64,000 nt of DNA from Nemertoderma westbladi (lineage: Eukaryota; Animalia; Xenacoelomorpha): assembly GCA_032718475.1 (NCBI GenBank), contig JAUCBJ010000005.1, positions 2,390-66,389 of the forward strand, written 5' to 3'. A program made the translations under genes and the position numbers. Each line of letters starts with the position of its first letter. Within the stretch, counting starts at the first letter, position 1. The notes under the pieces were generated by a model. The model ran no database searches and was not told where the DNA came from. It was given only the letters and a program-made list of their open reading frames with translations. Shown here piece after piece: positions 13,464 through 62,758 of this stretch.

Positions 13464-13469
13464 ACTCAC

Positions 13470-24410: not shown

Positions 24411-24452
24411 CTACAAAAATACGTTTTATGGTTCTAAAAATAAATTTATTAA

Positions 24453-26090: not shown

Positions 26091-26097
26091 TCGTTAA

Positions 26098-28717: not shown

Positions 28718-29505
28718 CTTTTTCTAGAATTTTAATGTTACTAAGTTAGTTATTCGTTAGCAGCGTATGGCTATGGCTGCAACGCTTCAATACGGTTATT
28801 TGCTGTGTAACGAGGATATCACCATAACACTCATTAAGTTCACAAAATGTAACAAATTATATATTTTCCTTAAAATATTCCCTTTCATGTCCGCAAAAGT
28901 GCGGACAATAAAGTAATCCAATCAATCTTCTTAAAATGCGGATAATAAAATATTTATCCAATCAACGATCTAGAAGTTTATTCTGTTGATTTCTCATTAT
29001 TTATTCTAGAACAGTAATTAATTACGTCGGTAATTATTAATAAATTTAGCATTAAAATGTTTAGTTGTCGTATCTTTTGATCCAGTAGCTATATACATTA
29101 ATCAAATTTTTGGTTTAAAAGCTGATTAAAAGTCTGACAGAAAATGTAACTTTCTTTTTATAAAAATTAAATATTATGCAAATAAATATTCTATATATTA
29201 TAAGATTATTTTCACAATACTCGAGATATTATATTTACCGAGCGTAGCGAGCTTAATTACAAATTATAATTATAAATTACATTTTAAGAATTTAATAGCT
29301 GTTTAATAATATATTTAATAGTGAAAATAATGTAAAAGAAGTTAAAATAAGGAAGGAGTTAATAAAATGTTCTATATCAAAATAAAAATTTATTAGAGTT
29401 TATATTCTAGAACGGTAGATAACAGTAAAACATTTACCATATATAAAAACTGTTTAGTAGCCGTGTGGGAATTATAAATACAATTAAATTATTCATTCCG
29501 AGAGA

Positions 29506-30999: not shown

Positions 31000-31377
31000 T
31001 TATCGTGATTGGCGGTTACTAACGTTACATCACACAAATAATCAACATTATTCATTCATACGCCAATTACATAGAGATAAATATGAATATTTGTTTGAAA
31101 AATAACTATTTTTACATTGGAATGTAAAACAAATATCATCTCAATAACATTTCACTATAGTAGTATAATTAAATATAATCACTCATCATCAGGGATGGAT
31201 TATGGATTATCTGGGTCCACCCAGGCAGCCCCCAAATTTCGGGCCCCTTCCCTGGGCAAAAAAGTTACGTTTCGGCAAAGAGTTGCGTTTCCTCAAAATA
31301 TAAAAATAAATTCCTATAGATGTGTTAGATCCGGGTTGAATTCAATAATTAAAATTGGAGTGGTCTTTATGATAATT

Positions 31378-34300: not shown

Positions 34301-35425
34301 TTCAGCTATAGCTAAAGCATATTCTTCAGCTCCACGATTGGCTACAGGAAAGTATGATGACCTCGTTTCGCTCTGTACTGGTAATACACCAGTGATACCC
34401 GCCGTGTATTCGCAATTTTATCTTTCCCTTCCACATCAGTAATTCAACAAACATATTGGAAAACTTAACAACAAGTACTCATACTAATCTTATGAATTAA
34501 CTCAATACTCATTGAAGGAAAAGTAATTAAATAATATTGTTCTCTATAATTCTTAAAATATTTTACATTCAGAAGAAAACAATTCATTGTTTTCCATTTA
34601 TACGGGGGGCGGGGGGGGGGGGGGGGGGGGGGTGGTCGAGGGCGAATCAATAATGTCAATTTTCAATTTAGGGAAAGGAACAGGTTCCTGTGACCGGTTA
34701 TTCTAACCAACACAACAATAATCGAAAGAGAAGTTACAGTTTCATTTTTGCTTCTAATAAGCTGTTATTTCCATCGATTTTCCCCGGGAGAGTTAAATGT
34801 TGATCTTCTGGGGGGATAAATAAAAGTGTTGTATTATGAGAGTATTTAACATTGGAAGTAAGTGTGGCATCATCTCTGCCTTATATTAACACCCAAGAGA
34901 GCGAGAGTGGAGCCTTTGGATTGCCTTTGGTGTTTTGTGTTTCACGTCCAACAATAACTTTATTACTTTACAATATGAGCAGTGTTGTACCCACCCACTT
35001 GCATAAAAATAAATGTATCATAAATTTTCTGTCAAGTTCAACTCTACTGTCATTGTTTTGGGCAAATTAGTTAATATTGCATATTGAAATATGAATAAAA
35101 CATCAATATAACAATATTAGTAAGGTTTCTTACATTTTAGTTTATATTTTTATAAACATTAATAGGTCGTATTACAAGATAATCATTGACTAACTTTTTG
35201 ACGAACAGACGTTTTGGAAAATTTTTCTTATACGACCTTTCGTCAAATTAAAATTGTTTAGAAATACGATATAAGGCCGTTTGCTTTTTACTGTACAGTG
35301 TTTAATACTGAAGATATGAATACGACCTTTTGTCAAAACATAGTTCCACCTTTTATGAACTCAAATACCCAATAAAGTCAAAATCGCAAAAATTGCCAAT
35401 ACGACTGTTCGTCATGGTGCCATCG
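31378..35425 (+). mobile_element. Sola1 DNA transposon (~4.05 kb) with nested insertions
   Basis: 28-bp TIR CGATGGCAC(A/C)ATGACGAACAGTCGTATT with one mismatch; 4-bp AATT TSD (31374-31377, 35426-35429), the AWWT type typical of Sola1. Confidence 0.85.
32931..34442 (+). CDS. Sola1-type DDD transposase, main open part (N-terminal part at ~31880-32070)
   Basis: VCKQLFLKTFNIS, HYTRKDS, SFDLEQV..FYKRRL.YNFTIY, WHE..RGSNEI, ADGCSGQNKN, GDSVH. The first ~95 codons of the 32646 ORF come from an insertion. Confidence 0.8.
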   Translation, partial: FYLATFGENHPTSLCEPKGKKKQTLNYTLFKDGEYVSVCKQLFLKTFNISEKFVYTTIKKLSADGVLEGEKRGGRVASLKVKDEFLETRTSEHIDRFPKVDAHYTRKDSKKNYLSEDLSVPKMFRMYKAEEKRAGNPAASFSKYYNVFQSKNLAIHHPKKNLCGLCETHRSAVKTQNIVGGEINAELKEEYEQHTSEKLKYREIKEDLTKRAKADECNQIAAASFDLEQVIYLPKSNRAEIFYKRRLANYNFTIYNLASKEVHCYLWHEAVAQRGSNEISSFLNKWLHFQDGRGVTDIKLFADGCSGQNKNSILPAMFREFLGNSKKAESVHLIIYVPNHGQCEGDSVHACVERAMKRCGDIMLPSQLIPVIKLSRNIPYNVIEVTSDDINDFKEYSRSLGILKTRESDNGVNVNWPSMCQILVKKVDPEKIYFKNMHQQPEFDAITLPKIREKKYISAIAKAYSSAPRLATGKYDDLVSLCTGNTPVIPAVYSQFYLSLPHQ

Positions 35426-35960
35426 AATTATTATGCAAGGTATTAATAAGTACACAGTACTAATATTATTTTATTTATTTGTGTGGAATTAATTTCGCAC
35501 TACCAAATCGTCAGGGCGACATACTTTCTAACTTTACATCGCAGTGCGACATTATTTCTCATGTATCTACGCCATACATTTTACTATAAGTATATCCAAT
35601 ATATCCAGTATGTAACTGCGTGATTATTAGGTTGTTCAAGAAAGTTTAAGTGCATAACTACAAATAATTCCCAACAAATAACAGAATTATATATAGATTC
35701 GCCATTGTTAATAATTATCATTTTTTTTGTTGGGTACAGCTTTGCAAAGTCGGCAATAACGTCTAGGTGAATCAAACTGGAAACTGGTGACCTCCGGGTT
35801 GGAAGTCTGACGCTGTAACCATTCAGCTAGCGGCTCAGGTAAAAGATAGACCTGGAAATACTGAAATGCCTATCTTTTTTTGCCGAAACGCAACTTTTTT
35901 TGCCGAAACGCAACTTTTTTGCCGAAACGCGACGACACCGACAAGACTACTTTCTTTATA

Positions 35961-36609
35961 CACCATGTCCCGTAATATAGTGTCATTTTCCGATGACACG
36001 GACCCCCCCCCCCCCAATATTTTCTACAAATCTTTATCATATTGTTTGAAATTTGAAACACCACTAGTTCCACTCACCGTGGTTGTTACCATGAAGACGG
36101 AATTTTCGATTTCGTCTTTAAATTTTATTTATAAGCGTTTCAAAAAAGTGTCTTTTGCGAAATCGCACCCTCCGTATAATTGCCATTCTTCACATTAGTC
36201 ATAATTGTTTCATATCAATAGAAAGCTTGCGTTGCAAGGATTACAAATATGTAACAATGTCTGAATTTCGTTGAGAAACAGCTGATAAATAGGGGTTTAA
36301 AGATTGCAAGAATTATCCTTCGCTGAAGGCAATTTATTCTATTTAATAAATAAACGATGTTCAGGAACATTTTGTTTAAGTATGAATAGCTACGCAATAG
36401 ATATAGTGGATAGGATTACCGCTGTTGCCAACCAACTCATAAAATAAATAACACGTTCTAGAATATTGTGTATTTATTGAATAGAATAAATGGCCTTCAG
36501 CGAACGATGATTCTTGCGTGTAATTCCCGTGTCATCAATAATTTAAGTTAAGTTAAGTTCAATAATTCCCGTGTCATCAGAAAATGACACTATATTACGG
36601 GTCATGGTG
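35961..36609. mobile_element. MITE with CACCATG termini (TA target, Tc1/mariner-like)
   Basis: ta|caccatgtcccgtaatatagtgtcattttc .. gaaaatgacactatattacgggtcatggtg. A longer copy is at 60103-60974. Confidence 0.8.
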
Positions 36610-37589
36610 AAATAGTCTTGGAAAATCTAGCTCCTGTAGCCAAACAAAAGGTTCATTAAAAATATGACATTTGATGCATATGAAGCCTAACAGGTAGCCT
36701 TGGAGGGATAACCGGGGATTTTTAAGGATAGTCTCTGTATTTTTTTATAGACTTGAATTTTGATTTCCAAGGAACAGCTTGTCTCTATATTTCGCGTAGT
36801 TGTAATCAACTTTATCCCAATTTCATACAGAAATTTCAAGATATAATTTCTTTATACAAAGATGTGGTTACAGAGGTTTATCAACACATATAATTTTCTT
36901 ACACTTTATACTTGGGTTTCCTGTCGCTATAAAATCTATGCAAATGTACTGTAAGTAGTTTTATTGAACTGTAAATTATATGAGGATCACATAGATAGGT
37001 ATGTAATAGATCTTGGCTGGATATGGATGGATAGAAACTTGGTTTGAATTATTGAAGATCTTGAAAAACTTTCCAGCACATTTTTGAAAAAATATTTGTT
37101 AAAATATTAAATTCCGAATTTGAATTAATTTAATTAGTTAAAATTAAATAATTGAATTAAAAATTGATAATTTCAAAAAACGGCTCGAGAGTTTGTTTTT
37201 AAAAAAATCTCCCGAAGGGGTACCCCCCCCCCCCCCCTCAATTATTATTACTTTTTTTTGGGGGGGGGGGGGGGGGGGGGTCGTGTTATTGAATTGCTAC
37301 ACATATTCCGGGATATGGTGTAATAGGTGTCATTTTATTCCTAAAACTACCTTTTTGCAGCTTCAAGAGGTAATTTTCATGAAATAAATTACGTGTAACA
37401 ACTACATAGTATTGCATTGTTTATTCTTGCTTGCTTGCCACAACTGGTTCATCCCATATTACATAAATACTTGTTCTACAATGAATATATCGCGACCATA
37501 GAGCTCAGAGCAATACACGACCAAAAATTATAGTTTCGATAAACATTTGCCTCAGTGTGGATCCAGTATCCTAATTGTTTGCACAGAGG

Positions 37590-37885
37590 TCTGTGGAGAT
37601 ACAAGAAATAGGCCTGATATTAAAATATGGGCAACGGCTATCAGAATAGAGAGACGGAACATGTATATTTGTTATTTTCCCGGTTATTTAACCCGCGTCC
37701 AGGAAACCCTGTCCAAGGCAGACGCCTCGTAAAAGACACTGGCCTTGAAGATGTGGATGATCTAGCAAATGTCATGGGTGCTGGGAGTTGTGGCGGCGCA
37801 ATTTTGTCGACAAGAAGGCACAGCATTCTTAATGTGATATGTATATAATGCAGCTGCAATGCAGCATGCCGATAGTAGTAGTAGC
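37590..37885 (+). mobile_element. 3' end of the same RTE-like family with (TAG)n tail
   Basis: KDTGLEDVDDLANVMG and tgcagcatgccgatagtagtagtag match 21545-21700 in reverse orientation. Confidence 0.8.
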
Positions 37886-37959
37886 TGCCCCTGCCACCCC
37901 CCCCCCCCCCCCCCCGCCCGCTGTCATTCCTCATATATTTACTCAATAAATTATCTCAC

Positions 37960-38684
37960 CTGACCGGCCCGGAAGAATATTTTAGTCAATCCGAACTGAT
38001 ATTTATCCTGATTCGGGATGAACTCCTGTACGACAGTTTCGCAGAGACTCCGCAATGTCTTACAGGAACGAACTCGCAAAGAATGGAGGAGCAACCGGTA
38101 GCGGGAGTTAAACTCGCCGTAGGTCCAACGGGATGGGAACCCGGCGGCGCTAATCCGTATCGTTTCTAGAACGCCGCACGCTCGGAGCTGCTGGATGGCG
38201 CGTCGAGGTTCGAACGAGAACGCGGCTTTATCGTCGTTCGGTTTAATACATCGAACATAATGCGGAGTCGTCGCGTTCAACGTCGTCATCAACTTCGATA
38301 GACTCTCGCAGAACTGCGCGCCGACTGTGGGTTTGTGTGACTTGGTTGTGCGCGGGGCGGGACGCATGGGGGTCACGCTCACCTTGTGCCGAGGGGCCGG
38401 CTCCCCGTGGAACAACCCCGCCACGAACTGGAAGTGACTCGCTCTCAGTATGTTAATGTGTTCGTCCAGCACCGTGTCGCGAGTTTTCTCCATGAATCCC
38501 CGGCACTCGTATTCGACTCGGTCCGCGAAGTGGCGCACCACGAAACAGTTCCGCGAGAGCCTCGGCGCCTCGAAGTCGGCGTGCGCCGCGAAAGCCTCCC
38601 GGAGTTTGGAGCACCAGTTCTCGTCGGAGCCTTTCGGGAGTTTACACTCCTCGTCAAGTCGCGGTAGAATACCGAGTCGTCCCT
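37960..38684 (-). CDS. MYO5: Myosin V, motor/converter exon
   Basis: EGRLGILPRLDEECKLPKGSD..HFADRVEY..HYVRCIKPND..QLRACGVLETIRISAAGFPSRW..TKIFFRAGQ. Acceptor ccacttag; donor CAG|GTGAG; phase matches the previous exon. Confidence 0.95.
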
Positions 38685-38855
38685 CTAAGTGGAAAAATAG
38701 AAATCGTTGATTAGGAGGTTGGATCTGTATTACTCAGCGCTGTAATGTAAGGGGGCGTTCTGTTCATAAAGTATGTCACGCAATATGGGGGAGGGGGGGT
38801 TCACATTAAGTATAATCCCTAACATTAGCACCCCCCCCCCCCCCCCACCCCATTC

Positions 38856-39100
38856 ACATCTCCTGTAGGTCGTGGATTCGATCCTCACATGGGCCAGGGC
38901 AGTTTTCGTTTCGGCTCGAATGCTTTAAAGGGACCAGCCAGGGCGCATCTCTGCCTTGCATCCTTAAGCGGTAGCTAAATGAGTACTGGAGTTTCCTCTG
39001 GGAAGTATAGTTCTGGGGGGACCGCACTGGAAATAAGTCGTCAGCGTATAATTCATAAGCAATTAATAAGTTCGTTCGCAATTAATAATACAATTAATAA
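38856..39100 (+). mobile_element. SINE fragment with B box and a Meta/Sauria-like central domain
   Basis: ggattcgatcc B box; gccttgcatccttaagcggtagctaaatgagtac resembles the GCCTTNCATCCT..GTAAAATGAGTACC core; AT-rich tail. Confidence 0.5.
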
Positions 39101-39149
39101 GTCGTGCGTAATCCCTGGCCTATCGGCTGAAGAAAATTTACTTTTTTAT

Positions 39150-39725
39150 ACGTAATTTTATTCTTCAAAGAGCGATATAGAGTTACAAAATAAATTGAAC
39201 TGTAGTATTTTACTATATTACTTCCAGAGTTACTGCTATTGTAATTATTGTACGTTTCAACTCTCGATGTTGCCTCACTCAATGTTAAATAATTTAGCGT
39301 TCTCGAATATTTATTACGTAACTAGAGAGCCGCTTAACAACATAAACCAATATTGGATATTGAGTTCCGTTTTGGAGTTCGCCTTACAGACACTAAAGTT
39401 GCATTAACTTTTGAGTGTGGGAATCGATTTTGCTTAAATTACTTGCAAACCTTTTCTGCGTCGATGCTCTTTCTACACGTGCAATACATTTTAAGGAATT
39501 CCACCAGAAAATAGTTTCACATGTTCTTAAAAAACATTACTTTTTTCACCGGGAAAAAAGTAAAATCAAGGCAATCCCATGAGTTAACTTTTTCCCCGGG
39601 AAAAAAAGTAACGAATATGATTGCATTGATTCGACTTTTTTTCCAGGCGAAAAAAGATAACAGGGTTGCAAGTAATTTGAGCAAAATCCATGCACACACT
39701 CAAAAGTTATTGCAACTTTAGTAAT
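39150..39725. repeat. ~570-bp dispersed repeat; inverted relative at ~48800-49310
   Basis: Shared blocks such as ggagttcgcctt.cagacactaaagttg and caactctcgatgttgcct in opposite orientation. Confidence 0.8.
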
Positions 39726-39825
39726 TGAAAGGTACAATTATTATAAACTATCAAGATGTACTCTGTCACAATCATAGCAATGATTTATACAATGACATCA
39801 ACAACGACTTCTATAATAACCTTAC

Positions 39826-40168
39826 CAATGAGCTCAATGCAGGTCTGATTGTCGTAGAAATCGATAAAGTTCCATGGGATCTGCTCCTTCGTGTATTCTT
39901 CTTGCTCCAACTTAAACACGTGCTGCGTAAACTGCTGTTGGAGCTTCTCGTTGGCAAAGTTGATACAGAACTGTTCGAAGGAGTTTACAGCGAATGTCTC
40001 GAATCCGTAAATATCCAGGACCCCGATGAAATGGTCTTGAGGAGTGCTGGATACCAGGGAGCGGTTGATTTGTACCACGGTCCAGTTGAACATCTGGCTG
40101 TATATGTGTTTGGCAAGTGCATCGCGGGCATTACTGGACTGTAGAGCGGTCATTGGTTTAGTCAGCAC
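39826..40168 (-). CDS. MYO5: Myosin V, motor-domain exon (most 5' exon found in window)
   Basis: Translates [48 protein letters not shown] (switch II and relay helix). Acceptor ttttag ends at 40169; donor G|GTAAG at 39825; phase 1. Confidence 0.95.
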
Positions 40169-42875: not shown

Positions 42876-44363
42876 ATGGGAGAATATAACGCTGTTCGCG
42901 AGAGTATTAATATGAATATTGATATGATACGGGGTCAGACAGAAGATCTCTGCGACGAGATGGAGAATAAATTCTCGATGGAAAACTTTAGGGTTCAGGT
43001 GCGCCAGATACAGCTGGACACGGAAAAGGTAGTCAAGGAAACGACGAAAAAACTGGAGAGCATGGAGGAATTCACACCTAATGACTCAGATGCTCTTCTT
43101 GGTGATGTGGAAGGACTCAGAATAGAATTTGATAGAGTTGTTAAAGATTTTAACGATACTCTAAATTATTGCAAAAATTCTGAACAGGAACAATTGATTG
43201 AACAGGAGGAAACCGGACGAAAATCTTTTGTTGGAGAACCGGAATGTACACCAGAACTTTCCGATATTGAACCGGAATCTATACCGGAACCTTCCGATAT
43301 TAAACCGGAATCTAGACCGGAACCTTCCGATATTAAACCGGAACCTAGACCGGAACCTTCCGATATTAAACCGGAATCTAGACAGGAACCTTCCGATATT
43401 GAACCGCAAACTAGACCGCAACCTTACGATATTAAACCGGAATCTAGATTGGAACCTTCCGATATTGAACCGGAATCTATACCGGAACCTTCCGATATTA
43501 AACCGGAATCTAGACCGCAACCTTACGATATTAAACCGGAATCTAGACAGGAACCTTCCGATATTGAACTGCAAACTAGACCGGAATCTAGATTGGAACC
43601 TTCCGATATGAAACCGGAATCTAGACAGGAACCTTCCGATATTGAACCGCAAACTAGACCGGAACATTCCGATATTAAACCGGAATCTAGACCGGAACCT
43701 TCCGATATTAAACCGGAATCTAGACCGGAACCTTCCGATATTAAACCGGAATCTAGACAGGAACCTTCCGATATTGAACCGCAAACTAGACCGGAACATT
43801 CCGATATTAAACCGGAATCTAGACCGGAACCTTCCGATATTGAACCGCAAATTAGACCGGAACATTCCGATATTAAACCAGAATCTAGACTGGATCCTTT
43901 GTATATAGAACTGGAAACTTCGGATGCAGAACCGGATGTTTCGGATGCAGTTAGCAAATTTGAACAATTACATGATAGGAATAATCCCAAACACAAAGAC
44001 ACAACATGTAATAGAACTTTTACAATCAAGGAGACATTCAGAAATCCCATATGCGATAGTATTGTAGCATCACATATGCATAAAATTACAAAACAAGATC
44101 GATTAAAGGAAAACAAACGTTTCATTAATGAAATATGTAAAGATGAGGAAGACTGGACCGACATTAGTCTGGATGACGACGAAGTTATTAATCCGCAACC
44201 GGTCCGAGTCCGTGTGAGTAGTGAGGGAGACAAGGGTGTTACTCGGAATAACACTAGATGGAAAATACGGTGTTGCTTCGCAATAATAATATCGTCAATA
44301 ATTGGCATTGTTGGAATAGTTGTGGGTTTATTAGTTTGGCATCATTTAAAAAGTACAGCGTAA
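42876..44363 (+). CDS. Syntaxin-7/12-derived tail-anchored protein: Habc-like bundle, 11-aa repeats, TM; no recognisable SNARE motif
   Basis: ATG at 42876, 495 aa. The N-terminal ~110 aa (INMNIDMI..FRVQVRQIQLDTEKVVKETTKKL..VEGLRIEFDRVVKDF) align by eye to the STX7/12 Habc. C-terminal RWKIRCCFAIIISSIIGIVGIVVGLLVW is a syntaxin-like TM anchor. Confidence 0.72.
   Translation: MGEYNAVRESINMNIDMIRGQTEDLCDEMENKFSMENFRVQVRQIQLDTEKVVKETTKKLESMEEFTPNDSDALLGDVEGLRIEFDRVVKDFNDTLNYCKNSEQEQLIEQEETGRKSFVGEPECTPELSDIEPESIPEPSDIKPESRPEPSDIKPEPRPEPSDIKPESRQEPSDIEPQTRPQPYDIKPESRLEPSDIEPESIPEPSDIKPESRPQPYDIKPESRQEPSDIELQTRPESRLEPSDMKPESRQEPSDIEPQTRPEHSDIKPESRPEPSDIKPESRPEPSDIKPESRQEPSDIEPQTRPEHSDIKPESRPEPSDIEPQIRPEHSDIKPESRLDPLYIELETSDAEPDVSDAVSKFEQLHDRNNPKHKDTTCNRTFTIKETFRNPICDSIVASHMHKITKQDRLKENKRFINEICKDEEDWTDISLDDDEVINPQPVRVRVSSEGDKGVTRNNTRWKIRCCFAIIISSIIGIVGIVVGLLVWHHLKSTA
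43251..43900 (+). repeat. 33-bp coding repeat (PSDIKPESRPE), ~19 copies
   Basis: ccttccgatattaaaccggaatctagaccggaa; reading frame preserved throughout. Confidence 0.95.
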
Positions 44364-46699
44364 TGATAAGATATACATTGCAGACCAAATTTTCTGTATC
44401 AGATAATAAAAAAATAACATGTGGTAGCCCGAACGCCGAACAACATTCGAGTCACAATTCAAGATAAATACTTTTAAATCCTCCATATTAAGCTATTTAT
44501 TAGTAGAGTTAGTCTAAATAAGTGATGGTGTCATTCACATGATTCAAATTCTAGAATATATTTACGCCTAATGAAGAAACAAACTGAAGAGTTTTAAATA
44601 CTCTAACAAAATTAATTAAACTTCAGAATATGTAAAAAAATATCAGAAAAGTATGGATATACCCGATAGATTAGATTACAGACATCTATGGTTCACCCAT
44701 CAGCAGGCACTAACAATCGATCGGAAAATTATACATCTTGGGAATCTTAGAGAAAAAAGCCTATTTGTGGACTTGAAATAAATTGTTTTGCAGGGAAAAA
44801 AGTTAATCTAATAATTTAATCAAGTCCAGAACACAGAAAAGCTATAGGAAAAAACATTGGTTTTAGAAAATATAATTAACGTGACATATAAAATGAATTT
44901 AATTAATAAAAAATATTTTCCCAACAAAGACGCAGCCTATTGATAGTCTACGTTTTAGCATGTATGTATATCCGTCAATCAAGGAACTGGTTGGTGGAAG
45001 GTTTTCACTTTCGGACCCGACAAAGACACAGTATGTGTTCTAGAACATATCTGACAAGTTTCAGCTTGAGGTATTTTATAATAGATAATAAGTATTTGTT
45101 GTTCTCCTTGTAAATCGCATTTCCTCGAAATAGTAATAATTATTTATTGCTAAATAATAATAAATACTCGAGATATTTTATTTACCGAGCGTAGGTAAGT
45201 CGCTTTAGATCAATGGGTACAACGAGTCGAAGGGAACAAAACTAGTCAAAGGGTACAACATTGAAGGGTACAACGAGATAAAGGGTTCAAACCAGGCTGG
45301 TCTAGGGTTAGGGTTACATGACAGTTTTAATTAGGGTTGAGGCCGCCACTACTGTAACCAGCGAGTTTCATACAGTATATAATAAATCCATGTTGTTCAC
45401 TTTGTCCTGTTGTACCCGTTTTTTGTACTCTTTGACTCGGAATCAGTGTAGGTAAAGAATCGCAGATAGGGTGGGACATCAAACGCCATAAATTCGACCC
45501 TCTACAGAGGAAAGTCGACGAAAATAACAGCTGATTACTCTCAAAAATAAAACTGTAACCTGTTCTATTGACTATCGTTTATAACGTACAGCCGTCACCT
45601 GCCCCTTTACCTAAATTGAAAATTTAACATTGAAGTGAGATATTAATTCGCCGGGATAGGATTTGCGTTCAGTCTCCCTCCCCCCCCGCTCCCCGCTCCC
45701 CGCTCCCTGCTCCCCCCCGCTCCCCATGTCTCAAGAATTATAATAATAAATAAATCTCTTTTTATTCATTCAAGATTGAACATAGTAAAAAATTATGATG
45801 ACACAATATATAAATACACATTATAAAAAACAATAACAATGTACAGTTTTAAATTTAATTAATCTGTAAACGACGGTATGATTTGCATATCTCGGATTGA
45901 ACCAAACAGTTGTCATGTACTGCACGAATAACAGCATTTGTCGATGCAGAAACTCTACTAAATAGACTATTTCACTTCATTTCATTTCATTACCGGCTAA
46001 TGGCCACGGTGGCTATTATTAATCAAATTATTAAATCTTCAGTAAAATAATAGAATGAGACGCATACAAATCATGCAAGACAATAATAAAATTGAGTAAA
46101 ATGTTATAACATCTGCAATACTATATGAATGCATGCATAGTTAATGGAAAAAATAGTTGCTAATAAGACAAGCTTGGGATATGGACGAGAATGTAGCTAA
46201 ATACGTATACGATTCGTGAATTTCTGCAATTGAGCGATGAGTAAATACTCCGCGCAAGGCATTTCCGGGCGGAAATCGAAAAACTATTTGTATTGAACAG
46301 ATTATAAGACAACTGTAAGGTATGTAGCAGTCCAGACTAAGTCGTAGACCTCATGGCTTGCGATAATTTATGTCTAGTACTTTCACAATGCTATAAATCA
46401 CGATAGCTGCTCCATGCAGAATCGTGGGGGTGCAGATCGTTTTCCAAACAAATATCTACTGGTACGTCGTCTACAGCGAGACCCCTCCTGGTGTCAACTC
46501 TTGACCGGTTCATCCATATTAGTTGTACGAAATGGTCTTATATGTATATTTTTGTCGGACGCTGGGAATGACAGACAGAGGAATTTGCAGTGTTAGAAGA
46601 TGTAACAGTTTCGCCGGTCTCAGCTACAATAATGCTCAACTGGTTTTTGACAGGTTGATCTAGAAGTCGCATGTCTGCAGATGACTACTGTAGTTTTGT

Positions 46700-47110
46700 T
46701 TTCGTGAAGGTAAGAGACATGTTGCGTCATGTGAAATATTTCTGGCAGATTGAAAACATTCCCTTTATATCACTGAAGTTGTTGTCTAGTAACAGAATGT
46801 CGTCTGCATATCCGATCAGAGGGTAGGCACTATTATTGATGTGTAGCCCTAATTCAGAAGCCACCAACTCCTGCAAAAGGTCTGCCAGGTAGATATTAAA
46901 TAGTTGTGATGATAGGACGCGACCCTGACTTACTCCGCATGGCAGTTTTATCTTTGAGGTTGAAATTAATCCATTAATGACCATCGATGCTGTTGATTGT
47001 GTGTAATATGAGAATAATGTGGTGAGGATTGAATGATTGAGATTTGCAGCAGCTAGCTTATTGAAAATTTGAGTATAGGTGAGCTAAGAGCCTCCTTAAT
47101 GTTACCCTTG
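46700..47110 (-). mobile_element. LINE reverse transcriptase fragment
   Basis: CGVSQGRVLSSQLFNIYLADL..GYADDILLL. Confidence 0.8.
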
Positions 47111-47504
47111 AATTTCCCCTTGTAGTCGGATATAGTTGGCCCTTGTAAAGATCAGATACCCACTCCCGGGATTCTGCCGCCACTATGTACTCCGAATATG
47201 TAAGGCAAATCGATGTAAATGCACCACAGAACGGATTCCTAAACGAGCATCTCGCTAGCACTACAGTAGCTACTGAATCCAAACAGCAGAATAATTGTGA
47301 GCAAAGTGAAAATATGTTCCAAGTAATTTACCATGCAATACGTAGTTTTATTTTTAGATGGATCATTACAAATCTATTTATGTACTAGAACATTTCAATA
47401 TATACAAATTATTAAAAAAAAAAAACGTTCTAGAATAAGAAAAATAGCAAAATCTAGGTATATATCCATATGATTTTTAAAATTAACTCATCTCCCTTAA
47501 TATA

Positions 47505-48030
47505 ATACTACTACTTCTAGGTTAGCAAGCTCGTACAGTTGAAATGAGATCCTTCCAGGCTTGCCGATTCTCCATAGTTGTCGCAATTTCGTTTCTCCTA
47601 AGTTCAGTATCCCTTTCAAGTTGATCTATATATGTTATGGCCGGTCGTCCACGACTACGCTTTCCATGAGTTGGTTGCCAGAGAAGTAGATCTGGTATGA
47701 CCTCGTCTTTACTTCGCAAGCAGTGCCCACTGAATCTTAAACTGCGTTCACGGAGGGTGGTTGATACAGGTGGAATTGTACCATAAAGCTCGGCGTTTGT
47801 CATGTGATGTCTCCAGCTGATGTTTAGGGCTGCCCTTAGTAGTCTTGTGTAGCAACCATCAATTCGTTGTTCAAGTGATTTAGTCAGTGTCCAGGTCTCA
47901 CCCCCGTATAAAAGTACACTTTCCACTGTGGCTCGAAAGAACTTAGTCTTCAGGTGCCTGGAAAGATCTGATTTCCAGATGGTATCCATTTTTGATAGAG
48001 CTACTCATGCCTTTGCTTTCCTATTCTTTT
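47505..48030 (-). mobile_element. RTE-like LINE 3' fragment with short (TAG)n tail
   Basis: IWKSDLSRHLKTKFFRATVESVLLYGGETWTLT..LRFSGHCLRS..GKRSRGRP. Confidence 0.85.
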
Positions 48031-51000
48031 TTACTACTCTTTAACCATGACCCAAAAAAACAATACAATTACAGAGATTATCCCTTAATACAACACCCAA
48101 AATTTTATTTTATTTCAATCACATGCTACGAAATTTGGTATGGTTATAGTTCGACAAGTTTTCATACTGCTGGCTACTGTAGATTTTTCAATTTCTCAGC
48201 TATTTCGAAACAACAGGCCGCTAAAAATCGTCTATTTAAAAAAACATTAGAATTATAGCGAATCACGTCTCAAAATTTATTACACCTTAGTATTTTGATA
48301 ATGTCTCCGGAAAATTTTGGTAAAATTGAAAACGGATCAAGATTCGGAATCTTGCAGATGAAGGCAGTTCTCGTGTCGCACACTCCAAAGATGAAAAGTA
48401 AAGTTGACGGAGGTGGCTAAATATTGCTAAAAAATGCGTTTTATAACGGCTTGTTGTATCTAAAGAGCTCAGAAATTGAAAAATACGGCACTGCCAGCAG
48501 TACGAAAAGTTGTCGAACTATCATCATACCAAATTTCGTAGCATGAGTGAAATTAAAAAAAGATTAGATAGTTTGTTGTATTAAGTGAGATGGTGTATAT
48601 AAAATAAATATCTATTGTAATCTATAATATATATATATATAATAATCTATATAATATCTATAATAATCTATATAATATCTATATAAAATGAATGTTAGAA
48701 CTTATTTACATAATGAAAGTAACATAAAGAAAGTAACATTTTTATTCTTAAAGGGTCACTTTTTCGCTCGAATATACCTCAAAATCGGGAGAAAAAGATT
48801 CACGTTTTTTCCCCAGGGAAAAAAAGTAATCTATAGGATTGCATTGATTTAACTTTTCTTCCCGGCGAGAAAAGTAAAGTAGAATATTTTTGGAGGAATT
48901 TTTTAATTTTATTACATATATTGAAAGAGCATCGACGTAGAAAAGATTTTAAAGTAATTTTAGCAAAATCCATTCCCACACTCAAAAGTTATTACAACTT
49001 TAGTGTCTGCAAGGCGAACTCCAAAACGGAACTCAGTATCCAATATTGGTTTATGTAGTTAAGCGGCTCTCAAGTTACGTAACAAATATTCGAGAACACA
49101 AAATTATTTTAACATTGAGTAAGGCAACAACATCGAGAGTTGAAGAGTACAATAATTTTAATCGTAGTAACTATAGAAGCAAAAGCAATATAGTAAAATA
49201 CTGCAGTTCAATTTATTTTGTAACACTACTGTACTGTAGTATTTCTCTATATTTTATTATAGAATTTAGCAACAAAAAGGTACCAATTTAAGAATAAAAT
49301 TACGTATTACGTGGGAAAAAAACGTAGAACATTTTTTTTTTCAATATTCTCTCGACCCTTTATTAACCTGGGTGTCGCTCGGAAAATAAAATGCCTTTAG
49401 AATAATGAAAAAAAGTTCTACTTTTTTCCCATGTAATAAATAATTATTTTGCCCGACTTTATAATTCCCCTTTTCCTCTAAAATAGTAAAAGCATTTTCT
49501 TCTCGGCCTTTGTCCTCGAAAATGTAAATTCTAAAGTCGGACAAAATAATGTTACTTTATTTTTGTGAGAGAAATAGTTACAAATTTTATATTATTTGAT
49601 TTATTTTAATTCAATTTTATTTGTTAATGCAAATACCGGTATGTAAATACTGTATATGTTGTTACTGTGGCAACAATGTTTACCCCCCCCCCCCCCCCCC
49701 CCTTATTGAACATTTTAACTGTTCATTATTTACATTATTTTCCTTTATTTTTAATTTTTTTTCTATTATGTATGTTAAGACATCAAATTTTATGTATCTA
49801 ATATTTTGGCTAGAGTTCCGCTCGTCCCATTTTAATTTTATACCAAAGTGTACAAGTTTGCTAGCTGTTACCTTTTAGCGTTTGTGTAAAGTGTTCTAGA
49901 ACATTTCATAATAGTTTTTTTAATTATGATCTAGAACAAGTTATATTTTGTTCTAGAACATTTTCAAAAAGTAGGAAATTTTTTTATTATATATATATCC
50001 AATCCCATCTGTTTCTTGGAGTCTGTGTGATACGTGCTCGTTACGGCGGTGGCGACAGAATCCATATACTGGGAGGTCAGTCTCCGGGTCGCTCAGTATA
50101 GTGCAGGTTGGGGGTGCCGGCGGTACGCAAGTACACACCACCTTCATGCCATACCTGGCCTGGGTATGGTCATTATGGTCTTGGGTCAGAGGACGCGCAT
50201 ACGTTGACCACCACTGTTGCACACACGGATGACTACTGACACACACTCGGTTGCTTTTATTAAACAGTATTTGATTTAATCAACAGGGTAGGGTGCTTTT
50301 ATTTCTTTATTATCTCCATGAATGGATTTCTTCCATCTTTTCTTGTACTCTTTTCAATTCCAGTTATTGTTTAGTGACAGTTTTTTACTTTGCAAGTAAC
50401 AAACTATTCTAGAATGTCATGTTTCATTAGATACTGCATCTTTTATTTTTTGAAAAAGTTTAAAAATAGCTAGCTTTTTAAAACATTAGCTAGACAAAAA
50501 AGAATAGCTACCATAAAAATATTAATATATTTTTATCGCGGGAAATGTTCTAGAACATTAATATATGTAAAAAACTCTTCAAAAATAGCTAGTAAAAAAT
50601 CTGAATATGGGGAGGACGGGCGGAACTGTTGCCAATATTTTATAAATGGTAGCTAGTGTTTTTTATTATAATTAATAATTTGTTTAATAATAATTTGTAT
50701 TTTGATAAGGTTTTGAGGATTTTTGTATTGTGTTTTTGAATGTAATTTTTTGTTGTGAAACATTGATAGCTATTATAGTAACTGATCTAGATAGCTATTA
50801 TTTTGCTACTATTATTATAGTTTTTTTAATAATTTTTTAATAATTTAATTTTTTATGGAGTAATAAATTACTTAAGGTGCCGACAAGCCGACTTTAGAGG
50901 GGTTAATTCAACATTACAATAAGGACTGAGTTGAGGACGCCCCTCGTTACTAAAACTCATTTCCTCTTTGAATCTCTATTACTAATATATTTCTGCCTCT

Positions 51001-51051
51001 AGGGCCATCATCAGCGTAACAATTACCGAACTAGACTAAAATAATAAATTA

Positions 51052-52004
51052 CACCATCCCCATTAATACAACAACAATTTTTAGCAAGTCGGAGCCCCCC
51101 CCCCCCTAATTTTTTAAAATTTCAATCATATGCTACGAAATTTGGTATGATGATATTTCGACAACTTTTCGCACTGCTAATAGAGTGCCCTTTTTTCTAG
51201 AATATTAATTATTATTTAGTTGAGCTTTTAAAACTGTCAATCTTGTTTCTTCATTACGCGTAATTCATATTCTAGAATTGAGTAAAAAAACATTAGAATT
51301 ATATTGATTTACATGTCAAAACGTATTTGTTTGTATACCTTTGAATTTTTATTATATGTGAGCGAATATTACACGTTTTATTTGGTAATATTGGTGAAGT
51401 ATTTACGCATTATCAACGTACTTGAGATAGCTTTATTGGTATTATAACAAATAAAACGTAACCACAAAACCATTCTTTCATTGAAACACCTCTGGGATCC
51501 ATACCAAACCCACGACTGGATTTAATGACAGCGGGACCCCTGGTCGAGACCAGAGTGAGCTTGACTAAGACAGGGAGGTGCCGGTAGATATTATCAGCTA
51601 AGGACATACACAATAATCGTTGAGCGATTTCTGAACTACGTAGACCCGACGGAATCTAATCACATTATATCTCCGGAAGTTATTGGTGAAATTGAAAACG
51701 GTATTCAGATTCGGAATCTGCAGCTGAGGGTGGCTCTAATGATATCTAGGCTACATTCAAAAGACGAAAAATAAGCCAACTGAGATGGTTAAATATTTCC
51801 AAATAGGCGTTTTTTAAATACTCATTGTAGCTAAAAAAAAAAATTGAAAAATCCGACCGGGTGGCAGTAAGAAAAGGTGTCGAACCATCTTCATATCAAA
51901 TTTAATAGCATTTGATTGAAAATTAAAGGAGGGGGGGGGGGGGGGGGGGGTGCTCCGACCAGCTTAAAATGGTTGTTGTATTAAAGGAGATGCTGAGATG
52001 GTGT
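51052..52004. mobile_element. MITE with CACCATC termini and TA flanks; relative at ~48080-48597
   Basis: ta|caccatccccattaatacaacaac..gtcggagc versus gctccgac..gttgtattaa..gatggtg|ta. Confidence 0.7.
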
Positions 52005-52089
52005 ATATAACAAAGTAACTGTAAAATTAATGTCAATATAAACTGGTTTAACAATCGGGTTATGTAAAAAGTAAACTTAGATTATCGCA

Positions 52090-52428
52090 ATGGACGAGAC
52101 AGAAAGGGGTAATCCTTTCATACCAGTGGAGTCATCAACGTCCGTCCAAGACACGAAAACAACAGTTAAACCCAAAACAAAGAAATCCATATCAAATGAA
52201 ACACACACACCTACAAAACAACGACACATATCAACGGCCCAGTCCACATCTAAACAACGGCACATTGCAAAGGACTCAAGACCATCTACACCACAGAAAC
52301 CACAGGCAACCACTAGCACAGATGGAAACATAATCTCCCGTTCCCATCTCTCCTGCTCATCCTCAGATCTTGAGGACAATACAGCTAACCCGATGCAACA
52401 GTTGCAGTTAGAGCAGAAACAATTACAG
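52090..52428 (+). CDS. Exon 1 of a Habc-less syntaxin-like (Qa-SNARE) gene; S/T/K/P-rich N-terminus
   Basis: ATG in a tcgcaATGG context. The frame runs to ..MQQLQLEQKQLQ, ending at CAG|GTAGG in phase 0, compatible with the exon at 56849. Confidence 0.6.
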
Positions 52429-53282
52429 GTAGGCCTACCAGTGTAGACAGAGTCACAATGATTGGAGCAGAAACAATTACAGGTAGGCCTACCAATGTAG
52501 ACAGAGACACAATGATTGGAGCAGAAACAATTACAGGTAGGCCTACCAGTGTAGACAGCGTCACAATGATGGGAGCAGAAACAATTACAGGAAGGCCTAC
52601 CAGTGTAGACAGCGTCACAATGATTGGAGCAGAAACAATTACAGGTAGGCCTACCAGTGTAGACAGAGATACAATGATTGGAGCAGAAACAATTACAGGT
52701 AGGCATACCAGTGTCGAGAGAGTCACAATGATTGGAGCAGAAACAATTACAGGTAGGCCTACCAGTGTAGACAGAGTCACAATGATTGGAGCAGAAACAA
52801 TTACAGGTAGGCCTACCAGTGTAGACAGAGACACAATGATTGGAGCAGAAACAATTACAGGTAGGCCTACCAGTGTAGACAGAGATACAATGATTGGAGC
52901 AGAAACAATTACAGGTAGGCCTACCAGTGTAGACAGAGTCACAATGATTGGAGCAGAAACAATTACAGGTAGGCCTACCAGTGTAGACAGAGACACAATG
53001 ATTGGAGCAGAAACAATTACAGGTAGGCCTACCAGTGTAGACAGAGATACAATGATTGGAGCAGAAACAATTACAGGTAGGCCTACCAGTGTAGACAGAG
53101 ACACAATGATTGGAGCAGAAACAATTACAGGTAGGCATACCAGTGTCGAGAGAGTCACAATGATTGGAGCAGAAACAATTACAGGTAGGCCTACCAGTGT
53201 AGACAGAGTCACAATGATTGGAGCAGAAACAATTACAGGTAGGCCTACCAGTGTAGACAGAGTCACAATGATTGGAGCAGAA
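52409..53282 (+). repeat. 54-bp tandem array (16 copies) made of the exon end plus splice donor
   Basis: Unit ttggagcagaaacaattacaggtaggcctaccagtgtagacagagtcacaatga; CAG positions 52426 to 53236. Confidence 0.96.
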
Positions 53283-53539
53283 TTGAGTAGACTCGGTAGG
53301 TATTATAAATGAATCGCGAAAAATCGTGGTCAAAAAATCCGAATATTCTACAAAGCTAGTGGTTCCTACTGATGGAATTGGAAGCATTCTTCACATCAAC
53401 AAATAACACACCCTATCCTTGGGTAGTGCAGTATGTTCAACCCACAGGTCTCTTAATAACAAGTATAGCCGACTCAATTCCAGCAGACAACCCATTACAC
53501 AGTTGGTTTACAAGATACCATCTCATTATATCTTATATA

Positions 53540-56500
53540 ACGAGAGAAAGCCGCCCCATTATGAGATTATTACAAAAACATATCCATTGGGTAAGAAAGT
53601 GGAGGAGAGCCAGCCCGTCTCTTAATTTTTTACTTTATATTACGCGATCAATTTTCACTCATCTCGTCATGAACCCAACATGTATGTAACCTTTTGTTAA
53701 ATTTGTTGGCTATGCGTTTGCGGTTGTTTGGGCGGAGTGTGTTAGGCCTACACTTTTCACACATAAATATTTTGGTTGTGAAATGTTACAGGGCATAGCT
53801 ATCTGAGATATTTCATTTATATTTTATTATGAGAGGAAGAAGAACATACAACGTTATTTACTATATATGTAACAAAATAATTGTTTTCGGGTTTAACTTG
53901 GAAGCCTCCCCAAATAGTTGATATACAATTATATTTAAAATTATTTCCATGGTCATGGTCATTCACCCGTCTTTAGTTAGAAATTTGTTTGCATGAAAGA
54001 CAGTTTAGTTTAGTTTTTACTGATTTATTATCTCTTATCTGACTGGGGTAATAATAAAGGATAGGATAAATGGAAGCAAAGTGTGACAGTAACAAATATT
54101 TCCCCGTCACCCTAGCATGTCTTCAGTATATGATATATCAAAGGGGGAAGTTTGGATTCACTGCATAAATGCAGTTCACCAAACTTCCCCCGAATGCACA
54201 CTGTAACTTCCCCCTTCCCACAAATATCCACTGTTGAATTAATTTGAAGCGTTATAATAAGTACAAAATTGTGCGAGTTTTTAATTGTGTGGTCCAATTG
54301 TTATTTGATTTCTATTTATTATTTCAAGTGCATTTAATATCACACTGGTTTTTAGAATATTATACTATACAACCTTATGTTTTATTAATTTACCCAATCG
54401 AAGCCTCATAAGGGCCGGTTATTTGTACGCATATCCCCTAATGCGCTCAGTAAGGTTCAAACAACATATTAATATGAAAATAAAGTATCTGCAAAGAAAA
54501 GAACCCAATACTATATAATTTGACCTTATTAAAAAATTTGCACTTTTGCACACTTATTTGTACAAATGCACTTTAGCAGATCGTAATGGTGGCTCTTATT
54601 TAACAAACTTATGTTTATCCTCTACCGATCTACGATGGTGTATGATCAAGTGTCAGTCGGTAAAAGTGTCAAAAATCCAATTTAATAAATCTGGATTTGC
54701 GATTTTGGACCATATTCATGGACATTTTAAGTCACTTTATAGACATAAAACGTTAAACAAACGATTATAGTTAGAAATCATTCCAAACTACATTTTAATC
54801 CAAAAAATAATATTCTACGATGAATAGAACTGGAAATAACAGTGTTTGAAATATCGAAAAAATGTTCACTATTTAAGTGCATTTTGCACTAAGTGCACAT
54901 AAGTCTTTTCCCAAGTTTTATCCTATTTCACACACTACAATCTATCCTCTATCCAATGAAAAAAGTTTCAGATTAAACGGCCCTGTAGAACCGAAGTTAT
55001 TTATGTTTAAAAATAGTCACTCGAAAATTTCAAATTCTCTTGGTCACATAGTCTAGTGGTTATCAATCACGTTAATGAAACCTAAGTTCGCGGGTTCGAA
55101 ATCCAATATTGACCTGACCATTCTTAATTTTTTTGCAAAAAAAATTATTTTTATTTTTTCACTAAAATCGCTCTAACTTCGGTTCTGGTGGTCCAAATTC
55201 AATAAAATTGGTATATTCTTTGCCGTAATTTTTTTCTTAATCTTTTGAGAAGGGGTTATTTTTGGCCCCAAAAAAATTAAAAAAAAGGGCCAAAATAACG
55301 CGATATTTTTCGACCCTTAAAATTCGTAATTTTAAATATATATGTTAAGATAAAAGATAGCGGAGTTAATTTGATACTTTTTACAGGTACTTTTGGCGCA
55401 ATACGCTAAATTATAATGGAATAGCGATTTGTTAAAAAAAAAAATTTTTCGTCCCTTTTTATAAATATTATATTTCACACGATCGCCTGCCGCTCCAGTT
55501 TTATAATACCTCCGGCGCTGTGATTAACGCTGTTAGATAGATAATTTAACGCACTATAAGTCTGTGTAAACAAATTTCCCGTAAGTTAAGTAGTTTTCGA
55601 GCTAGACGATTTCCCGCGAAGCAAGTTTGAAGCGCGAAATTATAATTTTGGCCCTCATTTTTTTAATATCATCCTTGGAGCAAAACCGATAGCATATTTG
55701 AATTCCCCGTATGGATATTGACTGTATAGAATGTACCTTAACCAACTAAAGTTAAAAATAAAAAATTATTCGATAAAAACTACTTTACAAATTCTGGCCC
55801 TTTTTGGCCCCTATTGCCGACATATTTTTTGTACCCCCATTCGATAGGAACGTAGCCCCAATGGTCTTCTACGAGTTTCATAAAAGAATTAGTAGATTCC
55901 TACCCGCGTTGTCGAATTAAACATTTCGGAAATAAGTTTTCCAAAAAAGACGGACAAAACGTACAAATTTACAGCCCCTTTTTCCACCCGAAATTTTAAT
56001 AAATATCTTACCCCCATTCGATACGAAGGTAGTACCACTCTTCCCCTTTCCAACCGCGTTACTTTCGTCCCCGTACGATTAATATTAGCCGAGTTATAGC
56101 GGATCCCGCAAAGTCATTTTGTCCGTTTTTTCAACTTTGACGGACATTTTCGGAAAAAAGGCGTGGTAATCTTTTTTGAAAAAAAAAAACGAATTCACTA
56201 ATTAATCCCTTCTATCGTATCCCGGCGTCGGCTAAGCAATAACCTAGGGTTTTTTCGAGCCACTGTAGAGCGCCTTTCAAAAAAATTTTAAAATTATCGA
56301 AAAAATGACGGATTTTTGTCCGCCGTGTCCGTCGAAGGGTTAGATTTAATAATGTTAGAGTTGCTAATATCTTAGAATTCCGAGCCGCTCCCCTGGTGAG
56401 AAAATAAAAAAATTTGGTCAGTTCCTTCATCGAAAAGTCCCCCAGAATCCGAAGTTAACCTATATAGTTAGCGATGGCCTGCGGCTTTAGGAGCGGCCGC

Positions 56501-56567
56501 GGTATTCACCTCCCTCATAGCGGCCGCGGCGGTGTTGCGTCAAATGGAGAAATATTTATCCCACCCA
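53540..56567. mobile_element. ~3 kb non-coding dispersed repeat within the intron of the SNARE gene
   Basis: Direct repeat of 1143-3375. Has a tRNA-like segment (~55040-55105) and a GC-rich end with two AGCGGCCGCGG motifs. Superfamily unresolved; left boundary may extend to ~53290. Confidence 0.8.
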
Positions 56568-56848
56568 GGGCCATTTTTATATACTGGTACCGGAACTGAA
56601 TTAAGATAAAGCGTATTGTATATACATAGCTACTCTATATGTATATAACTGTAAACTATAATATCAACACTAAAAAATACTATAAAAAAAATAAAATCAA
56701 AAGAAAAGAAAAATATTGTCCAGATGAGAGCCGCATCGTAACTTATTGTCACAAATCAAATCAACATTTATTAATAGTAAAAAAAATGTATTAATTAATC
56801 TATTATAAATGATTTATAATCTGACTTAGTAATATATCAATTACGCAG

Positions 56849-57148
56849 CAACGAAAAAACGAACAAGCCCAGATACAAGAAATGGAGACACAAGTAGGGT
56901 TACTACACGATGTTATAGATAAAGTAAACAAATCGGTGGAAGGTGAACAAGGAGAGCTTGTCAGTTCTATAGAGGGTTATATTGAGAAGATTGATATGCG
57001 ATTTAAAAAGGGAAATAAAGATCTGCAGAAGGAAATAAGGTACAGGATTCCATGTAAAGAGGGAAGTACTCTCTGGTTGGGTTTAATTGCTATAATAGTG
57101 ATACTAGTCGTAATAATTGTGGTTCTGGTAGTATATTATGAAACCTAA
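56849..57148 (+). CDS. Exon 2: Qa-type t-SNARE motif plus C-terminal TM (syntaxin-7/12-like)
   Basis: Branch-like CTGAC at 56821 and acceptor ttacgcag. QIQEMETQVGLLHDVIDKVNKSVEGEQGELVSSIEGYIEKIDMRFKKGNKDLQKE follows the EQGExIDSIE..GNxxLxKA syntaxin pattern. TM LWLGLIAIIVILVVIIVVLVVYY. Confidence 0.78.
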   Translation, partial: QRKNEQAQIQEMETQVGLLHDVIDKVNKSVEGEQGELVSSIEGYIEKIDMRFKKGNKDLQKEIRYRIPCKEGSTLWLGLIAIIVILVVIIVVLVVYYET

Positions 57149-62584: not shown

Positions 62585-62758
62585 ATGGACACAAGAGAGG
62601 AATTAAATAGTTCACCCATCGAATCCACGATTTCAACATCTATCCAAGACACGAAAACAACAGTTAAACCCAAAACAAAGAAATCCATTAGTAGGCCTAC
62701 AGCTAAAACCGCCACTGCTTTAGTATGCATACCAGTTTTTACAATCTTTTGTCAATGA
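62585..62758 (+). pseudogene. Partial paralog of the 52090 exon (truncated copy, or first exon of a third family member)
   Basis: 46 nt identical to about 52144-52189 (QDTKTTVKPKTKKSI), with the same tcgcaATGGAC start and a similar leader, followed directly by gtaggcctac. Confidence 0.6.

Follow-up and report, generated by a model that had tools for sequence, protein, structure and literature searches.

Two neighboring genes on the forward strand of a 64,000-nucleotide stretch of Nemertoderma westbladi DNA (assembly GCA_032718475.1, contig JAUCBJ010000005.1; this whole stretch is hereafter the window) carry complementary parts of a syntaxin. Gene A encodes a Habc domain of the STX7/12 type, anchored by a transmembrane (TM) helix and lacking a SNARE motif, and gene B encodes a Qa-SNARE motif with a TM segment of its own and likely no Habc domain; a third related gene start, C, lies beyond B. 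We give about even chances to the explanation that these genes are fast-evolving STX7/12 duplicates that underwent complementary domain loss and whose products act separately, as an adaptor (A) and a decoy (B). An earlier description made from the letters alone (the sequence-only reading) had proposed a pair of genes formed by duplication and reciprocal domain loss, in which B would be a constitutively open SNARE.

The N-terminus of A is an STX7/12-type Habc domain, as the three-helix pattern noticed in the sequence-only reading had indicated. A profile was built from 65 full-length STX7/12-type proteins, which were selected from 113 proteins by removal of fragments, fungal-like rows, and STX16 (the query that gathered the 113 proteins contained the exon of B, not A). 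When the 2564 open reading frames (ORFs) of the window were scanned with this profile, only two passed E 0.001, namely A, whose residues 1-104 matched at E 1e-6, and the B exon at 56849; the third row of the scan (60877-61134) is a GTC microsatellite translated as valines. Residues 1-110 of A scored 29.3 bits, a value reached by none of 2000 plain and none of 2000 heptad-preserving shuffles (maxima of 12.8 and 13.2 bits, respectively). Pfam Syntaxin_2 also matched A, as had been anticipated, over residues 11-97 at E 2.4e-4 and with 21.6 bits, under its curated cut-off of 26.5, and the best sequence match in PDB was the STX12 Habc domain (E 0.11). In the AlphaFold2 single-sequence model the N-terminus forms three helices (predicted local distance difference test, pLDDT, 76.8). 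The top Foldseek match of this model is the STX12 Habc structure 2dnx (E 0.012, alone not significant), which also came first in the VIA fold search (Z 13.5, root-mean-square deviation 4.2, 115 residues aligned), followed by a syntaxin-1 Habc scaffold (Z 13.0) and plectin spectrin repeats (Z 12.4), so that fold alone does not separate the domain from spectrin. A spectrin or other bundle identity was nevertheless rejected: the fold is close, but the sequence profile points to syntaxin. The Atlas search (best 0.87, with Syntaxin_2 on 49% of members) provides a lead only.

The Habc domain of A is divergent, retaining 10 of the 26 Habc columns that are conserved in at least 75% of 64 STX7/12 proteins. 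Its profile match begins at position 21; therefore, the usual N-terminal extension of about 20 residues is absent. Pairwise BLASTP of A against three syntaxins was not significant, and a word-based search with residues 1-125 found no homologue among 102 candidates (lengths 272-867), which is a weak blank. Exact look-up of four proteins of the window found none of them, a similarly weak blank.

Behind the Habc domain, A consists of a repeat stalk, an acidic tail of about 125 residues, the TM helix, and a stop codon, followed 42 nt later by an AATAAA-type signal. We detected no SNARE motif: Pfam SNARE did not match A, the SNARE part of the STX7/12 profile matched nothing across the ORF except for a 3-bit TM stretch, and no syntaxin was present among the 11 PDB rows obtained for the tail at E<=10. 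The tail has a low heptad moment and a pLDDT below 50 outside the TM helix, in keeping with the earlier remark that no SNARE heptads precede the TM. The 3-bit match of the A TM to that of STX7/12 is weak, and homology of the two helices is weakly supported. Two candidates were rejected, namely a folded domain in the tail (unsupported at this pLDDT in a single-sequence model) and a SNARE exon for A hidden elsewhere in the window (the scan of 2564 ORFs returned the 56849 exon besides A itself). A is a derivative of STX7/12 without a SNARE motif and not a full member of the subfamily. Within the tail, positions 44199-44225 (+) resemble the motif located behind Habc in STX7/12 (0.05 expected by chance in the tail) and overlap the possible splice donor at 44214. 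In STX7/12 this motif belongs to the region of the SGK3 site (10.1101/741652). The likeness would suggest, as an after-the-fact hint, that the SNARE segment was lost by a deletion just behind it.

Exon 2 of B encodes a Qa-SNARE motif and a TM segment, and the zero-layer Q pointed out in the sequence-only reading is in place. The exon matched the STX7/12 profile at E 2.9e-9, and the motif without the TM scored 22.3 bits, which none of 2000 plain and none of 2000 heptad-preserving shuffles reached (maxima 12.2 and 14.2 bits). When 1.84 billion proteins were scanned in full by HMMER with the exon (56849-57145), six hits at E<=0.001 were obtained, comprising two syntaxin-1-type proteins, one sponge syntaxin-7-like protein, one unnamed protein with a SNARE motif and a TM segment, and two unrelated repeat proteins; the first four of the six are counted as syntaxins, and no close relative of B is among these six matches. 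The expected agreement with SNARE models was thus obtained with the STX7/12 profile but not with Pfam SNARE alone (E 2.5, not significant). A word-based search with exon 2 found no homologue among 139 candidates (lengths 175-2000), and a metagenome scan gave 385 pattern matches and no relatives, both being weak blanks. Poly(A)-type signals are located at +19 and +28 after the stop codon.

The SNARE motif of B is distorted. From -7 to +8 its layers are I M V L I V V Q V I I I F G L E, with a hydrophobic, Q, or G residue kept at 15 of the 16 layers and 24-34% identity to STX7/12. An additional residue lies between layer -1 and layer 0, and layers -3, +4, and +8 hold I, I, and E, whereas in the 65 STX7/12 proteins the same columns hold F (65/65), A or T (47 and 13 proteins, respectively), and A (64/65). 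B therefore departs from the regular 16-layer register, in which layer -3 is F and layers +4 and +8 are small. Between the motif and the TM lies a linker with Pro and Gly along with three basic and two acidic residues, forming a helix-breaking juxtamembrane segment. From general SNARE biochemistry, insertions, layer changes, and Pro-Gly linkers of this kind weaken zippering and force transfer. Because the motif is distorted, a decoy fits B better than a constitutively active SNARE, and the earlier term "constitutively open SNARE" is an overstatement.

The likely first exon of B encodes 113 residues of low-complexity, S/T/Q/K-rich sequence with a Gln-rich end, close to the disordered S/T/K N-terminus described before. 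It has no Pfam, PDB, or STX7/12 profile match. A hidden Habc exon for B was rejected, as among the 2564 ORFs of the window an Habc piece occurs in A only. Given the predicted first exon 52090-52428, B likely has no Habc domain. The predicted join of 52428 to 56849 follows the GT-AG rule in phase 0 and gives a product of 212 aa. The exon ends within a 54-bp tandem repeat (95% matches) that supplies 16 donor-like sites and leaves one plus-strand frame open for 307 aa. The predicted intron also harbors a dispersed repeat of about 2.2 kb (53541-56568), a second copy of which is found at 1143-3377 (+); three segments of the two copies are 97%, 87%, and 99% identical, and a clear terminal inverted repeat was not found in this element.

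A and B share more than their position. The nine-base start context noted in the sequence-only reading occurs at only 3 of the 1864 ATGs of the window (0.27 expected), and all three are gene starts: 42876 (A), 52090 (B), and 62585 (C). This rare shared context points to a common first exon. The alignment of C with B starts about 60 nt before the ATG and reaches about codon 35 (about +100), where C jumps to a weakened copy of the B donor; read through, C is a 57-aa ORF to 62758 with a mildly hydrophobic end (mean hydropathy 1.4), and its second exon, if any, lies beyond the window. The starts of A and B are 9.2 kb apart and those of B and C 10.5 kb apart. Considering this third paralogous start, the locus is an array of three or more related gene starts in tandem, with its far end outside the window, and the earlier description of a pair has to be given up.

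Both halves lean toward STX7/12 in sequence comparisons of matched size. Residues 1-110 of A scored 21.6-31.3 bits on 15 nine-sequence STX7/12 profiles, 6.8 bits on a syntaxin-1-type profile (nine sequences), and -0.1 bits on an STX16 profile (nine sequences). The motif of B scored 24.8 +/- 1.5 bits on 25 eight-sequence STX7/12 profiles, 14.7 on a syntaxin-1-type profile (eight sequences), and 8.1 on an STX16 profile (five sequences). A quick tree without the three other longest rows placed B among STX7/12 rows and outside the syntaxin-1-type clade with a Shimodaira-Hasegawa-like approximate likelihood ratio test (SH-aLRT) value of 99, to be read with a long-branch warning, the end branch of B being 3.25 long against a median of 0.24. 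The common descent proposed earlier is thus favored by the profiles of both halves, but the tree leaves the subfamily of B unfixed.

Several observations weigh against the explanation that we favor. The top two library hits of B belong to the syntaxin-1-type proteins, and when these two (picked by their likeness to B) are added, the syntaxin-1-type profile rises to 30.3 bits; the syntaxin-1-type sequences used for comparison were also few and more diverse, so that their profile scores lower. In the approximately unbiased (AU) test with three long rows left out, placement of B with syntaxin-1-type proteins had p 0.45 and placement with STX16 p 0.36. In a profile test the B junction comes 7th of 149 rows (the exon by itself and 148 candidate donors), gaining 0.9 bit, and it is a predicted join. 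No similarity at the protein level was found between A and exon 1 of B, so that the kinship of A and B rests on nine start bases and the subfamily lean; a DNA alignment of the A and B tails, made without a control, showed nothing beyond composition. C may be dead, considering its weak, phase-shifted donor. The A stalk shows no sign of purifying selection, for the 12 distinct variants among 17 of its 33-bp units comprise 12 amino-acid-changing and no silent ones (and no stops). Finally, an intact STX7/12 gene elsewhere in the genome is assumed.

Some of these points would fit an origin of the two genes from different ancestors, A from STX7/12 and B from a syntaxin-1-type Qa-SNARE, as the best library hits of B, the AU test, and a tie in PDB between STX7 (17.4 bits) and squid syntaxin (17.3 bits) could indicate. 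However, size-matched profiles favor STX7/12 by about 10 bits, the quick tree groups B with STX7/12 (subject to the same long-branch warning), and B has the rare start context in common with A. We consider such an origin very improbable.

The presence of a start codon, a TM segment, a stop codon, and a poly(A)-type signal in each of A and B favors two genes. A single alternatively spliced locus was also considered, in which the possible donor at 44214 would be joined to the exon at 56849 or to a piece beginning at 52081, yielding a full syntaxin with Habc, linker, SNARE motif, and TM, while the A-only and B-only forms would represent alternative last and first exons. GTGAGT at 44214 is the only one on the plus strand in 40169-64000; it is in phase 0 and lies just before the A TM, the exon at 56849 is likewise in phase 0, and Habc followed by SNARE is the normal order. 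With an in-frame AG before 52081 as a candidate phase-0 acceptor, a full-length spliced syntaxin would be possible, although this is an after-the-fact hint. On the other hand, the 44214 donor scores 3.2 as compared to 6.6 for the B donor (on a generic matrix) and has T at -1 where the myosin donors of the window have G; its join to 56849 ranks 121st of 149 in the profile test; and exon 1 of B has first-exon features in common with A and C, while A ends with signals of its own. A single locus of this kind appears improbable.

Decay offers another account of the same features: A, B, and C might be non-functional or nearly neutral duplicates that are complementary by chance. The very long branch of B, the loss of invariant residues in both halves, the repeat expansions in A and at the B donor, the lack of a silent-site excess in the A repeat, and the damaged donor of C would all suit this account. 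However, neutral copies at about 20-30% identity to STX7/12 should have acquired stops or frameshifts, whereas A is open for 495 codons and exon 2 of B for 99, each ending right after an intact TM. Open frames and kept layers at such identity argue for function, and with 15 of 16 layers retained and all repeat units in frame, A and B are likely under selection as judged from their sequences; decay therefore seems unlikely to us. The long B branch and the few conserved Habc columns left in A suggest that both evolve fast.

In the explanation that we favor, a two-exon STX7/12 gene would have been duplicated locally. A would have lost its SNARE segment and grown its repeat stalk, and in the ancestor of B and C the Habc domain would have been replaced by low-complexity sequence, with the B/C duplication following later, while an ordinary intact STX7/12 parent elsewhere would keep the core role. 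The earlier idea of duplication and reciprocal domain loss thus agrees with the complementary architecture and the lean to STX7/12, but it has to be amended for a replaced first exon in B and C and for the third copy. The Habc domain of A would be held above the endosomal membrane on a flexible acidic stalk of about 360 residues, where its partners would be Sec1/Munc18 (SM) proteins, tethering proteins, ubiquitin chains, or Qa motifs of any kind; A cannot drive fusion because it has no SNARE motif. B would be free of auto-inhibition and would take the place of the normal Qa-SNARE in endosomal SNARE complexes, which would be slow or non-fusogenic owing to the register shift at the zero layer, the bulky +4 and acidic +8 residues, and the Pro/Gly linker, similar to the complexes of inhibitory SNAREs.

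Habc domains have been described to pack back onto SNARE motifs (10.1101/741652), to promote SM-dependent fusion, also when supplied in trans (PMC10943372), and to have K63 ubiquitin chains as binding partners (PMC7721868); independent duplications of endosomal syntaxins (PMC2639358) and loss of the SNARE motif in tomosyn relatives (PMC8377282) are on record as well. A more intimate relationship between A and B was also considered, a natural split syntaxin in which the tethered Habc domain of A would act in trans on the SNARE motif of B, by closing it or by SM-aided assembly, and the pair would amount to one STX7/12. The two genes are adjacent, on the same strand, exactly complementary in domains, and both lean to STX7/12; the long A stalk might give the needed reach; and engineered split Sed5 and split syntaxin-1a set precedents (PMC10943372, PMC10895456). 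However, the third copy makes A plus B a subset of an array, and complementary loss could also arise from independent decay of duplicates. Moreover, the N-terminal half of the B motif, where Habc would pack, is out of register and lacks residues that all or nearly all of the 65 STX7/12 proteins share, A keeps few of the conserved Habc columns, and split Sed5 required hyperactive Sly1 for life (PMC10943372). From the sequences at hand, a split syntaxin is unlikely.

Table 1. Features of the syntaxin-like array and the adjoining myosin exons (window coordinates).
Feature	Position	Strand	Description
Gene A	42876..44363	+	Intronless ORF of 495 aa without a SNARE motif: Habc, repeat stalk, acidic tail, TM
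STX7/12-type Habc of A	42876..43187	+	Three helices, aa 1-104; from profile, fold, and shuffles
Stalk of A	43237..43899	+	Pro/Glu/Ser/Asp-rich; about 20 in-frame 33-bp units (11 aa; one unit 15 aa)
Possible splice donor in A	44214..44219	+	Phase 0, after codon 446; T not G at -1
TM helix of A	44280..44336	+	aa 469-487, after basic/Cys stretch; mean hydropathy 2.9; pLDDT about 95
Gene B, likely exon 1	52090..52428	+	113 aa; S/T/Q/K-rich, no Habc, Gln-rich end
54-bp repeat	52411..53282	+	16 copies, each with the B exon end and donor-site motif
Gene B, predicted intron	52429..56848	+	Phase 0, GT-AG; dispersed repeat inside
Gene B, exon 2	56849..57148	+	Qa-SNARE motif, zero-layer Q 56948-56950, TM 57077-57133, stop
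Gene C	62585..62690	+	Third start; copy of B exon 1 in shortened form; donor at 62691 weakened and in phase 1
Myosin exons	13437..40168	-	Six exons: head (profile positions 319-679), followed by IQ, coiled-coil, and tail

The window is repeat-rich, animal-type DNA of 38% GC, and the array adjoins a myosin gene on the opposite strand (Table 1). Two minus-strand exons matched the Pfam myosin head (E 9e-70 and 8.5e-53), and we take the myosin to be of class V from the order of its IQ, coiled-coil, and tail domains. The topmost exon seen, 39785-40168 (-), enters the head profile at position 319. For head positions 1-318, no P-loop or switch motifs were found in 40169-64000, and the Pfam myosin head matched none of 138 minus-strand ORFs in this region (out of 177 with 32 aa or more; the set excluded the 27 shortest as well as 12 that run antisense to A or B). 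Because the 5' head exons lie outside the window, A, B, and C are likely nested antisense in an upstream myosin intron. Of the earlier statement that the genes lie within the myosin V locus, the location beside the myosin exons holds, and the nesting is likely. A second nested gene is present at 29506-30999 (+), an intronless PP2A B56 regulatory subunit gene (497 aa, PDB E 1.4e-79) antisense between myosin exons, whose nesting is shown by the exons flanking it on both sides.

Exons of the myosin gene are few and very long (frames of 260, 348, and 531 aa), its introns are long and filled with repeats, and this structure points to an intron-poor lineage. One intron contains a stop-free frame of 604 aa (32628-34442, +) that is transposase-like by eye. 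Very long simple tandem arrays lie in or adjoin the myosin introns (6162-7613, 8095-13465, and 17132-18768) and generate spurious open frames of up to 1435 aa. Between A and B, the minus strand carries a reverse-transcriptase remnant with a neighboring DUF6451 match (46730-47083 and 47525-48004; RVT_1 E 1.8e-8 and DUF6451 E 2.5e-4), and fragments at 21592-23022 and 24453-26098 resemble this remnant by eye only. Beyond C, an Ala/Thr/Gly/Trp-rich frame at 63536-63913 (+) has no Pfam match and is reminiscent of the C-terminus of ribosomal protein SA.

Roles of Habc domains beyond auto-inhibition have so far been probed with deletions made by engineering and with split proteins. Neither a natural Habc-only protein tethered to a membrane nor a natural split syntaxin was found in the open-access literature, as judged by titles and the opening of abstracts, and the available part of 10.1101/2022.05.02.490315 holds no passage on either. 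Truncated splice forms of some syntaxins are known. Located beside an Habc-less Qa-SNARE, A offers a ready test of Habc acting in trans on endosomes. If A and B work separately, a slowly evolving core fusion gene would have spawned fast-evolving half-copies, probably tissue-specific regulators; if they form a split syntaxin, auto-inhibition or SM-assisted assembly would depend on how much of a partner gene's product is present or where it is, instead of on intramolecular fold-back, and B-type copies such as C would enlarge the range of fusion halves. Should a single transcript join A and B, the product would be an unusual syntaxin of ordinary type.

Comparison with known systems places these genes closest to STX7/12 (Qa.III.b; PDB 2dnx, 1gl2, 2nps), to which the N-terminus of A corresponds in Habc profile and fold and exon 2 of B in the Qa motif, zero-layer Q, and C-terminal TM. 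However, an STX7/12 protein of about 260-290 aa combines Habc, SNARE motif, and TM in a single chain, whereas here these parts are divided between separate ORFs with two TMs, A having a stalk of about 360 aa and no N-terminal extension and B an insertion beside the zero layer. Split Sed5 works in vitro, and in vivo with hyperactive Sly1, its free Habc stimulating fusion (PMC10943372), and both pieces of split syntaxin-1a can bind Munc18-1 (PMC10895456). In both cases function is possible with the Habc and the membrane-anchored Qa motif on separate molecules. However, they are laboratory constructs from other subfamilies with a soluble Habc, whereas A and B are natural and both anchored, and their interaction is hypothetical; in addition, the Habc of split Sed5 is stimulatory, not inhibitory, and hyperactive Sly1 is required in cells (PMC10943372).

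The closest precedent for B is tSNARE1, which carries a Qa motif behind a foreign N-terminus and delays endosomal traffic when expressed (10.1101/2021.02.09.430442). Its natural Qa motif has been compared with Stx12, and it enters endosomal SNARE assembly with a proposed negative role; however, its N-terminus is a Myb-like domain, most of its transcripts lack the TM, and no Habc-only partner gene appears in the available passages (10.1101/2021.02.09.430442). Inhibitory SNAREs (PMC2171956) and tomosyn (PMC8377282) resemble the suggested role of B, as their SNARE motifs make complexes non-fusogenic. They differ in being ordinary SNAREs in a non-cognate complex or R-SNAREs without an anchor, whereas B is a TM-bearing, distorted Qa-SNARE whose inhibitory action is suggested by its motif. 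As for the genomic setting, nested genes in Drosophila mostly lie on the opposite strand, include an excess of young duplicates, evolve faster, and show a testis bias (PMC3814207). The array shares with them the opposite strand, a probable duplicate origin, and apparent fast evolution (PMC3814207), although the organism is a different one and the nesting of A, B, and C is a likely rather than a demonstrated arrangement.

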